From UHGV virus genome UHGV-1730466: a stretch of DNA of 14,875 nucleotides, one strand, 5' to 3'. A program made the translations under genes and the position numbers. The stretch comes from a virus. Shown in pieces: positions 6,539-8,436 of this stretch. A model generated the notes under the pieces. The model had not been told where the DNA came from and ran no database searches. It saw only the letters and a list, made by a program, of their open reading frames with translations. Numbering within the stretch: the first letter of the stretch is position 1; each line of letters begins with the position of its first letter.

Positions 6539-8436
6539 TCTTCGCCATATTTAGCGTGCGCAACCTTATAGTTTTCTTGCGCCCGATCTAATATTCGTTT
6601 GTTTAATATATTACCGTCTTCATCAACTAATACGGTAATCGTGCTACATTTGCAGTTGCTCGCAATTAATCCATTTGCTATCATTAAACCTGATAACTCC
6701 TGGAGATCATAAACATGACCAGAATAATAGCTAACAACAATGTCGATGACTTCATCAAAGAATACCTGTCCGGCACGAGTATCGATAATATCGCCTTGAT
6801 GTTTAACACAACCACGGTAGACGTTATCACTTCTATGAAAAGCGCCGGATTCAAGTCCATCTCTAACGCAGATAAAGCTATTGAAAAATATTTTACCGTT
6901 GACGAACTCTATGCCAGACACGTCGCCGGGGAAAGCATCCAATCCATAAGTAAACGCATCGGCTTTAGTAGGATTGCCATTTGCCGCTTGTTTGATAAGC
7001 ACGGCCTCCACTACAGAACTCGACAGGAAGGAGCGCTTGAACGGTACAAAAATCTCTCTGCGGACGAAAGACGGGCTGTTACTGAACCAGCTTTCACCAC
7101 AAGAAGAGGAAGCCGTGATAGCGCTGCTGTTATAGCCAAAAGAGCAAAACACAGGCGCTTTGATCGAGTTGGCATGTTTGAGCGCGAGATTATCGAGAGT
7201 CTCATTGCACATGGCATCTGGTGTGAAAACCAGTTCCCCATCGGCGGTTACAACATCGATATTTTTATCCATTCCCCCGCCGTCGCCGTGGAAATCTACA
7301 GCACTCACCCTTGCAGAGATAGACTTGCCGATATCAGAGAGAGAACTAAAAACATCCTCAATAGCGGGGTCAATCAATTGACGATCCAGATTAGTTACCC
7401 GCATCGTGTTTTTGATCTTACCGCTGTAAGCAACGGCATAATCTCCTTTGTTGACTTCTGCCGCCGGAATCAATCCGCGATTGGTCATAATGGGGTGATT
7501 AGGGGTAACGGTGAGATTCCTGCCACTTCTAGTCATTATCTTGATGACTTCCCCGCTGTAATGCGCTTTTGAACCAGCTAAAAACCTGCCGTGTACAACC
7601 GTTCCCGGCAGGTAACAGTTAATTGAATTAGGGGATCTGCTCCACCATTCGCGCTGCTCTTCTATGGTGTACGTTTTCCCGTGTCGCTGTGCGTGTGACA
7701 GCCTGGTAGTCGGTGACAATGCCGAAATATGCATCTGCATCGTGCGCAAATTAAGCTCATCCGATGCGGCCTCTGCCTCATCCATACGCGCTGTGCGTAA
7801 CGCTGTGCATATTTCAGTACGGGCAATACGTTTGCACCTGTATAGCGGCAATTGCGTTTCCTGCTGCAATGTACGCGCTATTTCGAGTGGGTTTAAGCCG
7901 CGGGCCATGCCTTCAGTTAATCGGCGGGCCATATCCTTCTTGATCTGTGCGGTAAGCCCGCGCATCTCTTCAAATACACGGGTACGGACCAGGGCAAGGC
8001 GTGTGCGATAGGTCTGACTGGTTAATACCGCCGACACTTCAGGGTAAGCCCTGGAATATGTGACTGACTGGTTAGCGAGGTTGGCATATTCCTGTGAAGT
8101 GCCTCGCTGATATGCCACCTTTACGTATTCCTGCCAGAACCAGAAGTTTTCCGGGTCTGTTAACTCGAATATTTCATCAATCATGTCGCTGGCGTCTTCC
8201 AGCAAATCATGTAATTCGTCGATGTAGATCTGGAAGGTGTATTTTTTATTAACAGCCAGGGTGTATTGTATTCTGTCCAGTATGGCGATATACGGATCCG
8301 CAACTTTCTTCAGGCAGGCTTTAAAACGCTTGATAGCACCAGACCTTAACTTCCCTGTCATGGTCGGGTCTTCGGTGTTAGATGGCATTATCGCGGCTGG
8401 AGGTATTCGCCTGATTATCTTCTTCACCCTCATCAT
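6529..8436 (-). CDS. Mu F-like (SPP1 gp7 family) minor head protein interrupted by an in-frame intein; 635-aa precursor, about 314 aa after predicted splicing
   Basis: N-extein ends ...TTRLSHAQRHGKTYTIEEQREWWSRSPNSIN and C-extein begins CKCSTITV, which together rebuild the Mu F-family D.R.R..H...GK ... PNC(R/K)C signature; the likely start is the second ATG (8433), 6 nt after AGGAGG. Confidence 0.75.
   Translation of the reverse strand: MMRVKKIIRRIPPAAIMPSNTEDPTMTGKLRSGAIKRFKACLKKVADPYIAILDRIQYTLAVNKKYTFQIYIDELHDLLEDASDMIDEIFELTDPENFWFWQEYVKVAYQRGTSQEYANLANQSVTYSRAYPEVSAVLTSQTYRTRLALVRTRVFEEMRGLTAQIKKDMARRLTEGMARGLNPLEIARTLQQETQLPLYRCKRIARTEICTALRTARMDEAEAASDELNLRTMQMHISALSPTTRLSHAQRHGKTYTIEEQREWWSRSPNSINCYLPGTVVHGRFLAGSKAHYSGEVIKIMTRSGRNLTVTPNHPIMTNRGLIPAAEVNKGDYAVAYSGKIKNTMRVTNLDRQLIDPAIEDVFSSLSDIGKSISARVSAVDFHGDGGGMDKNIDVVTADGELVFTPDAMCNETLDNLALKHANSIKAPVFCSFGYNSSAITASSSCGESWFSNSPSFVRREIFVPFKRSFLSSSVVEAVLIKQAANGNPTKADAFTYGLDAFPGDVSGIEFVNGKIFFNSFICVRDGLESGAFHRSDNVYRGCVKHQGDIIDTRAGQVFFDEVIDIVVSYYSGHVYDLQELSGLMIANGLIASNCKCSTITVLVDEDGNILNKRILDRAQENYKVAHAKYGEDWE
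6655..7617 (-). mobile_element. Intein, 321 aa, within the minor head protein gene
   Basis: Cys1 (codon 7617-7615) in CYLPGTVV (block A), LTVTPNHPIMT (block B, TxxH), HVYDLQELSG (block F), ANGLIASN (block G, terminal Asn at 6657-6655), +1 Cys; boundaries checked codon by codon. Confidence 0.7.
6715..7572 (+). CDS. Nested antisense ORF inside the intein: HTH plus DUF559/Vsr-like (PD-(D/E)xK) endonuclease candidate, 285 aa
   Basis: Two HTH-like segments (IDNIALMFNTTTVDVITSMKSAGF; ESIQSISKRIGFSRIAICRLFDKHGL); ENQFPIGGYNIDIFIHSPAVAVEIYSTHP aligns to the DUF559 core [29 protein letters not shown]; GGAG 8 nt before the ATG; possible promoter TTGCTC (6656-6661), 17-nt spacer, TATCAT (6679-6684). 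Confidence 0.5.
   Translation: MTRIIANNNVDDFIKEYLSGTSIDNIALMFNTTTVDVITSMKSAGFKSISNADKAIEKYFTVDELYARHVAGESIQSISKRIGFSRIAICRLFDKHGLHYRTRQEGALERYKNLSADERRAVTEPAFTTRRGSRDSAAVIAKRAKHRRFDRVGMFEREIIESLIAHGIWCENQFPIGGYNIDIFIHSPAVAVEIYSTHPCRDRLADIRERTKNILNSGVNQLTIQISYPHRVFDLTAVSNGIISFVDFCRRNQSAIGHNGVIRGNGEIPATSSHYLDDFPAVMRF

Follow-up and report, generated by a model that had tools for sequence, protein, structure and literature searches.

A class-1 intein in a phage MuF gene and an antisense Vsr-like candidate homing endonuclease encoded codon for codon against it

We analyzed a stretch of 14,875 nucleotides of the virus genome UHGV-1730466 (the window), in which the gene for a MuF-like head-morphogenesis protein carries a class-1 intein and the strand opposite the intein carries a second open reading frame (ORF) of 285 amino acids (aa). 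We show that two proteins are encoded here on opposite strands, and that both are under selection. Probably, they make up a composite selfish element within MuF, in which a Vsr-like homing endonuclease is encoded antisense to the intein, codon for codon. The translation signals of the endonuclease are embedded in block F of the intein.

Two open and selected frames in one intein

The MuF ORF (635 aa; positions 6529–8436, minus strand) was identified as a minor capsid precursor by its Pfam and PHROG matches, with Phage_Mu_F at aa 169–274, Intein_splicing at aa 290–579 and a match to phrog_758 (head morphogenesis) at an E-value of 2e-113. The records closest to positions 6400–8500 came from seven Escherichia phages (mEp010, mEp013, mEp044, mEp554, mEp021, mEp515 and MagusPhagus), which matched at 88–96% identity in two pieces covering about half of the region, with the intein insert missing. 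Relative to mEp010, the extra DNA corresponded precisely to 6655–7617 (minus strand), that is, 963 bp or 321 codons in frame. The N-extein (aa 1–273, ending in SPNSIN; 7618–8436, minus strand) and the C-extein (41 aa starting with CKCSTITV, and a stop codon; 6529–6654, minus strand) were 95.8% and 98.8% identical to mEp010 in nucleotide sequence, and in-silico removal of the intein gave a 314-aa protein identical at 311 of 314 residues to the 314-aa MuF of mEp010. The intein-less junction in MuF of the mEp010 type reads ...AATTCAATTAAC↓TGCAAATGT... (AAT TCA ATT AAC↓TGC AAA TGT, the arrow marking the point of insertion). The intein begins with Cys1 in CYLPG and ends with Ser-Asn321 in GLIASN, and the next residue is Cys+1.

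AlphaFold2 was confident for intein aa 1–65, 81–135 and 283–321. The N-terminal Hint part (about aa 1–135; 7213–7617, minus strand), with Cys1 of block A and T38-P-N-H41 of block B, was modelled with a pLDDT (predicted local distance difference test) score of 86–98, except for a dip at aa 66–80, and the C-terminal Hint part (aa 280–321; 6655–6780, minus strand), with G-H301-V-Y-D-L of block F and the terminal ASN of block G, with a score of 84–98. All top Foldseek matches of the intein model were inteins or Hedgehog Hint domains, with probabilities up to 1.0; E-values were only 3e-3 and weaker because the centre of the model is disordered. Among homologous inteins, T38, N40 and H41 of block B were invariant, as were G300, H301, V302, Y303, L305 and N321, and the whole set of Cys1, T38-x-N40-H41, G300-H-V-Y-D-L305, N321 and Cys+1 was invariant or nearly so. 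The precise in-frame insert, the nucleophiles and blocks, and the predicted Hint fold of the two terminal parts are those of a class-1 intein.

The stretch between the two Hint parts is of a different kind. Intein residues 145–270 (6808–7185, minus strand) are rich in Ser (15%) and Phe (11%), are predicted to be disordered (pLDDT 26–38), and showed a pairwise identity of 0.16–0.18 in the intein frame, compared with 0.31–0.44 in the plus frame over the same DNA. A Pfam search found no LAGLIDADG or HNH domain in the intein frame at E≤1, and no canonical endonuclease domain was found there, in line with an earlier sequence-only reading of the window, which had described this centre as Ser-rich and without a recognizable endonuclease. 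The centre of the intein is a linker that needs only to remain free of stop codons, and serves as an open-frame spacer.

The antisense ORF (6715–7572, plus strand), which the same reading had noted as nested in the intein, starts with ATG and lies wholly inside 6655–7617, 20 codons from the C-terminal and 15 codons from the N-terminal end of the intein. The next antisense ORF of the window in order of length has only 141 aa. It occupies the −1 antisense frame, so that both frames use the same triplets, with ORF codon k opposite intein codon m = 302 − k over a shared stretch of about 860 bases (286 codons). The ATG (6715–6717) is antisense of the CAT codon of block-F His301, the TGA stop codon (7570–7572) is antisense of Ser16 (TCA), and the Shine-Dalgarno sequence that had been claimed for the ORF is present as GGAG at 6702–6705, 9 nt before the ATG and antisense of Leu305-Gln306. 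In most relatives the ATG was found exactly 20 codons from the C-terminal end of the intein and the stop at intein codon 16, and relatives carried a purine-rich equivalent of the Shine-Dalgarno sequence at the corresponding place. The His301 codon was CAT in 46 of 50 inteins, while the other His codons of these inteins were divided 272:272 between CAT and CAC. AT skew was positive only across 6500–7400 of the window.

From the codon usage of the window and the Leu and Ser content of each frame, we estimated the chance of finding no TTA, CTA or TCA codon at 3.7e-5 for the endonuclease frame and at 6e-6 for the internal intein frame. We then collected a first set of 85 related loci, 79 of them from IMG/VR, and applied a strict test for a nested, open, same-phase plus frame. 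The test was passed by 81 loci; the minus frame was open in 85/85, and the phase relation was 0 everywhere. On re-inspection of the four flagged loci, two ended three residues early (L062 and L067), L059 lacked only the N-terminal module, and L015 was the only one with a clearly broken endonuclease frame (an internal stop). A second scan, seeded with divergent members, detected at least 505 IMG/VR stretches, and 79 of the 80 loci fetched from these were nested in minus-strand ORFs carrying both Hint ends. Both frames were open in 55 of 56 distinct related inteins. Plus-frame stops (TTA, CTA or TCA in the intein frame) made up 1.9% of extein codons, and occurred in inteins only at the extreme ends; in two low-GC relatives (L063 and L078), whose exteins have 7–9% antisense stops, the plus frame was open as well. 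Chance openness of both frames was excluded.

L015 is 98% identical to L016, and has a plus-frame stop at intein codon 221 with its intein frame intact. Among the loci, it alone clearly shows an endonuclease in decay while the intein is still open. In both L015 and L016, the conserved start position has GTG instead of ATG, because the block-F His codon is CAC.

We determined which frame is selected in each part of the overlap using conservation profiles of the 56 inteins, aligned by the intein frame and by the plus frame; the zone pattern was equal in both alignments. At the two ends (6655–6745 and 7465–7617), identity was 0.49–0.71 in the intein frame and 0.27–0.54 in the plus frame, and the third position of the intein codons was the most variable. 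In the zone from 6790 to 7240, which includes the linker, identity was 0.21–0.44 in the plus frame and 0.15–0.30 in the intein frame, and variability was highest at the third position of the plus frame (entropy 1.5–1.77). From 7240 to 7465 the two frames were about equal in identity and both outer codon positions were constrained (entropy 1.0–1.4), so that the wobble entropies place the strongest dual constraint here: plus-frame position 3 had an entropy of 1.09–1.42 against 1.6–1.77 in the zone encoding the helix-turn-helix (HTH) modules described below, and plus-frame position 1 had 1.0–1.3 against 1.5–1.6 in the intein-only ends. We considered whether conservation of the intein frame at aa 67–145 is a mere by-product of endonuclease conservation, but do not accept this as the only cause, since the third positions of the plus frame, at which changes are silent for the endonuclease, vary much less there (1.1–1.4) than in the HTH zone (1.6–1.77).

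Substitution classes gave the same picture. Single-nucleotide differences were classified in 41 closely related pairs; the counts are not phylogenetically independent. In the linker and HTH zone, 718 changes were silent only for the endonuclease and 86 only for the intein, and opposite the nuclease core (intein aa 67–145) the numbers were 415 and 120. At intein aa 17–66 they were 115 and 155, and in the parts of the intein outside the ORF they were 10 and 158 at the N-terminal end, and 5 and 157 at the C-terminal end. As read from these alignments and counts, the endonuclease frame is the one under selection in the centre, and the intein frame is the one at both ends; in between, where the nuclease core faces the N-terminal Hint part, both are selected. 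The dual coding over about 860 bp that had been proposed from the sequence of the window thus stands.

These data bear on the possibility that the intein is dead, and that MuF is interrupted by an opposite-strand gene whose minus frame is open by chance or only recently so. In favour of this, conservation is lacking over the 126 residues at the centre of the intein, which are predicted to be disordered, and the penultimate residue is Ser, where His is usual. However, the minus frame was open at every locus of the first set and both Hint ends were present at all but one of the second, the splicing residues from Cys1 through TxxH, GHVYDL and the terminal Asn to Cys+1 are invariant or nearly so, and purifying selection on the intein frame is strong at the ends, with 158 against 10 changes at one and 157 against 5 at the other. 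In addition, MuF is part of the head module of these phages. We therefore consider a dead intein very improbable.

The antisense protein and its likely role

The 285-aa antisense protein was modelled by AlphaFold2 with a mean pLDDT of 93, and its predicted fold matches that of Vsr-type nucleases. Two HTH-like segments had been proposed, and two modules were indeed recovered. HTH module 1 (ORF aa 7–43; 6733–6843, plus strand) was delineated by AlphaFold2 helices, by alignment (A1) and by a PDB profile match to the tandem-HTH protein 2lvs_A (E 6e-8), and HTH module 2 (aa 62–95; 6898–6999, plus strand) by AlphaFold2 helices, a weak HTH_38 match and family-level matches to HTH_7, HTH_58 and HTH_23. 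HTH_7 or HTH_58 was detected in 30–34 of 65 aligned family members. The Vsr-like nuclease domain (aa 156–263; 7180–7503, plus strand) is antisense to intein aa 39–146. Its acidic triad is encoded at 7180–7182 (E156), 7258–7260 (D182) and 7291–7293 (E193), all on the plus strand, and was conserved in 65/65, 65/65 and 64/65 family members, respectively; R210 was present in 64/65.

The motif that had been taken as DUF559/Vsr-like spans ORF aa 171–199, inside a match to Pfam MTES_1575, a PD-(D/E)xK restriction-type nuclease family (aa 155–214, E 2e-4, below the gathering score). At the family level (E<0.01), MTES_1575 was matched by 49 and DUF559 by 22 of the 65 aligned members, and the PDB profile search matched the DUF559-type endonuclease-like protein 3hrl_A (E 1.8e-4), so that nuclease homology was found where the sequence-only reading had predicted it; 3R3P was not matched at E≤1. 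With the profile built from the first homologues, 790 representative proteins were detected at E≤1e-30, and 9,176 at the looser threshold of E≤1e-3. No exact-sequence record was found for either of the two proteins. Strict membership in the EDxHD family, as defined by the motif of Taylor et al., was rejected, with H198 in only 33/65 members and the final Asp unconserved. Taken together, the models show that the antisense ORF encodes a protein predicted with confidence to fold into two HTH modules and a Vsr-fold nuclease with an acidic triad.

Could the plus-strand ORF nevertheless be a spurious by-product of intein codon usage that encodes no protein? Codon-aligned antisense frames are those most often open by chance, and some high-GC relatives have very long open plus frames (1056 codons in L017, for example). 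Some of the plus-frame conservation near 7465–7572 may also be a by-product of intein block B. In the central zone, however, both the conservation and the wobble signature belong to the plus frame and not to the intein frame, and over the same DNA the mean pLDDT is 93 for the plus frame but below 50 for the intein frame. The plus-frame protein has the fold of Vsr-type nucleases, its frame is open even in the low-GC relatives with many antisense stops in their exteins, and a free-standing homologue exists (P0053, described below). A spurious ORF has a negligible probability, and is already refuted by the conservation, structure-model, fold and substitution results.

By analogy with known systems, the antisense protein would be the homing endonuclease for the intein-less MuF allele. 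We infer this role from the protein's fold, from its conserved acidic residues and from the sharing of one insertion site by very diverse phages, as well as from the presence/absence polymorphism among near-identical E. coli phages and the activity of I-Bth0305I, which cleaves its intron-less target (Taylor et al., 2011; PMC3239194). We propose that the endonuclease would be produced from an antisense transcript, as the analogy with I-Bth0305I and with in-frame intein endonucleases suggests. On co-infection or on encounter with a prophage, the HTH modules would bind an intein-less MuF allele (...AAT TCA ATT AAC↓TGC AAA TGT...) and the nuclease would cut it, and recombinational repair would then copy the intein and the endonuclease jointly into the cut allele. 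The insertion would destroy the target site, while protein splicing would restore a functional 314-aa MuF, leaving little cost to the host phage.

The antisense protein may, on the other hand, be real without being, or while no longer being, the homing endonuclease of the intein. One possibility is a DNA-binding regulator that has been domesticated, another a nuclease that acts against competing phages and has a safe harbour in the intein. Of the Vsr/EDxHD active site, the His is kept in only about half of the members and the final Asp is absent, two HTH modules could by themselves serve regulation, and several VSR-type inteins show vertical-looking inheritance (preprint, bioRxiv 10.1101/2025.01.02.630785). 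For this endonuclease clade, there is also no known case of target cleavage. Against this, the invariance or near-invariance of E156, D182 and E193 in 65 divergent members argues for retained catalysis. Moreover, 56 of 56 distinct related inteins occupy one MuF site, ...N↓C...(S/H)N↓C(K/R/H)C, in very different phages, the element is absent from phages closely related to that of the window, and the endonuclease frame was broken in L015 only. One site in diverse phages and absence from close relatives give the sporadic distribution expected of active homing. A role other than homing appears unlikely to us.

Several observations weigh against the interpretation as an intein with its own antisense homing endonuclease. 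The window protein scored 21.7 bits for MTES_1575, below the Pfam gathering threshold of 38.2. H198 is present in the window protein yet in only 33 of the 65 family members, and the conserved final Asp of the EDxHD motif was not found among them. The sigma70-like promoter that had been suggested for the antisense gene was not borne out: a consensus scan of 6000–8000 gave 5 sites, compared with 3.7 ± 2.0 expected, and the only nearby plus-strand site (6701–6728) overlaps the endonuclease ATG. At the amino acid level, the intein shares only about 45% identity with its closest relative, megablast of the intein DNA against 5,426 complete E. coli genomes gave no near match, and no co-conversion tract was visible, the mismatches to mEp010 being unclustered near the insertion point. 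With distant relatives, no matches in E. coli genomes and no co-conversion tract, recent homing into the window phage is not demonstrated.

A weak promoter-like sequence was also seen by eye (TTGCTC-17-TATCAT, 6656–6684). It is antisense of conserved intein codons (ASN, MI) and would be lost in relatives with Val at that intein position, and we do not claim it as a promoter.

Spread of the element and its phage setting

A tblastn search with the plus-frame protein matched 47 phage records, always on the opposite strand under MuF or head-morphogenesis genes. A Vibrio phage (vB_VaM_H2) was 50% identical over the full length, Pseudomonas and Cronobacter phages were about 48% identical, and Gordonia, Idiomarinaceae, Edwardsiella, Salmonella and Klebsiella phages about 25–28%; the matches on the strand opposite MuF included the Gordonia phages Malisha (E 2e-16), Vivi2 (9e-16) and Angelicage (6e-12). 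When the intein frame over the same bases was used as the query, most alignments spanned only the first ~140 residues, which form the N-terminal Hint part. In Enterobacteriaceae prophages at NCBI, a 233-aa homologue annotated as an HTH-domain protein is nested within a 577-aa MuF.

The inteins fall into two size classes. Those of 269 codons (L002–L005, L017–L020 and others) encode a 233-aa endonuclease with one HTH module, module 1 being absent, and those of about 318–321 codons (the window, L001, L006 and L008) encode one of about 283 aa that has both HTH modules; all of the size difference falls in the linker and HTH1 zone. In a number of uncultured phages (L073–L075, L083, L084, L105, L110, L115, L148 and others), the intein lies within ORFs of 1,000 to about 1,500 aa, presumably MuF fused to further domains.

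Annotation pipelines are inconsistent on the overlap. In the Enterobacteriaceae locus L003, only the antisense endonuclease has been called (4001–4702), with no MuF over it, while in L002, L004 and L005 both genes have been called. Gene callers usually annotate just one of the two proteins. For MuF inteins that seem to be decaying or to lack an endonuclease, the opposite strand is worth checking.

The free-standing homologue P0053 (L088, 655–1536, plus strand; named a very-short-patch-repair endonuclease by JGI) is convergent with an intein-less MuF (1556–1963, minus strand), and lies 19 nt downstream of the MuF end ...ENTISCRCISVGVISRIK. We examined P0053 as a possible ancestor-like form. Its codon-aligned antisense frame is free of stops as well (0 in 294 codons) and remains open to the end of the contig (~520 codons, 47% GC).

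We tentatively suggest, at somewhat less than even confidence, that the intein and its antisense endonuclease are one ancient interlocked unit, among the most widespread intein families in environmental phages, and not the outcome of a recent invasion by a free-standing gene. Compatible with this, the start codon, Shine-Dalgarno sequence and stop codon lie in conserved intein codons, the whole catalytic domain is opposite the N-terminal Hint part, the phase and the position of the ATG are constant from Gordonia to E. coli phages, and at least 505 IMG/VR stretches were detected. If this is true, a Hint fold and a Vsr fold, each with independent homologues elsewhere, have been fitted onto the same ~320 bases, which a simple insertion model fails to explain.

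The window is late-region DNA from an E. coli phage or prophage of the lambdoid type, with all major genes on the minus strand. The genes identified by PHROG matches encode an Rz-like spanin (13664–14134), the small (11814–12314) and large (9827–11314) terminase subunits, the portal (8378–9769), the MuF-like precursor, a phrog_760 protein (5255–6538), a head decoration protein (4810–5238) and the major head protein (3728–4792), and tail genes follow at coordinates below the major head protein. From its annotated start (MMRVKK...), MuF shares 59 nt (8378–8436) with the end of the portal gene, and mEp010 is annotated with that start too. Two HNH endonuclease paralogues on the minus strand (11298–11801 and 14138–14644) both matched phrog_99 with E-values of about 1e-61. 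The first sits between the small and large terminase genes, with a 17-nt overlap with the start of the large terminase gene, and the second adjoins the Rz-like spanin gene. The two could be homing endonucleases of the free-standing kind, or else HNH enzymes of the terminase-associated type.

The locus offers a clean and well-supported case of long antisense dual coding in a bacterial virus, in which one can say for every part of the overlap which frame is under selection. The E. coli setting is tractable, since intein-less mEp sister phages are available for studies of homing, of antisense expression and of the tolerance of folds that are dual-encoded.

Comparison with known systems

The sequence-only reading knew of no described case of this arrangement, but one has been reported. 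Gosselin, Arsenault and Gogarten (2025; bioRxiv 10.1101/2025.01.02.630785) report endonucleases of an "anti-sense VSR-like" kind from Gordonia phages, where they occur in contiguous MuF inteins. In their supplement, "VSR -1 ORF" is the label given to the inteins in the MuF-like minor capsid proteins of Malisha, Vivi2, Angelicage, Affeca and Fosterous. Since Gordonia phages on this list were recovered by tblastn, the element in the window belongs to the same family; in both cases the intein is contiguous and MuF-like, the endonuclease ORF is in the −1 antisense frame, and the sequences are homologous. The host of the window element is, however, a lambdoid-type E. coli phage, and identity to the Gordonia elements is only 25–28%. 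The preprint states that such antisense ORFs typically lie outside the splicing domain, whereas in the window and in Vivi2 the ORF covers all but 15–20 codons at each end of the intein, and the nuclease core is opposite the folded N-terminal Hint part.

Genes of the I-Bth0305I/EDxHD family occur inside a group I intron, or else flanked by the two halves of a split intein and sharing the strand of the host gene; the latter holds for the Vsr-like endonuclease in the fractured genes that Dassa et al. (2009; PMC2677866) described. The window endonuclease is instead antisense within a contiguous intein; in its family neither the His nor the final Asp of the motif is conserved, and R210 is nearly invariant (64/65). 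Antisense LAGLIDADG endonucleases in inteins, as cited in the preprint (Gorbalenya, 1998; Gogarten et al., 2002; via bioRxiv 10.1101/2025.01.02.630785), resemble the window element in having a homing endonuclease on the strand opposite a contiguous intein. As far as that citation allows comparison, they differ in the nuclease family, which is LAGLIDADG in those inteins and Vsr-like here.

The fold and the acidic active-site positions of the antisense protein are shared with the Vsr mismatch endonuclease (1CW0), NGO0050 (3HRL) and Pfam MTES_1575. These are stand-alone cellular proteins of the repair or restriction type without tandem HTH modules, and Vsr has a zinc site and intercalating Trp residues, neither of which was seen in the window protein. 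Canonical inteins such as PI-SceI contain an in-frame LAGLIDADG or HNH endonuclease domain within the same polypeptide. The general design is alike, in that splicing hides the insertion and the endonuclease spreads the element; in the window, however, the endonuclease is a separate protein encoded on the opposite strand, and the centre of the intein is a non-functional spacer.

The arrangement itself is therefore already known. Our analysis adds a proteobacterial member in an E. coli phage and evidence for a large family in uncultured phages; the class of inteins with an "anti-sense VSR-like endonuclease", described in actinobacteriophages, is thereby extended to phages of enterobacteria, Vibrio and Pseudomonas and to many uncultured ones. 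It also adds a zone-by-zone map of selection, and an ORF that leaves only short ends of the intein uncovered and has its nuclease core encoded against the folded N-terminal Hint part.

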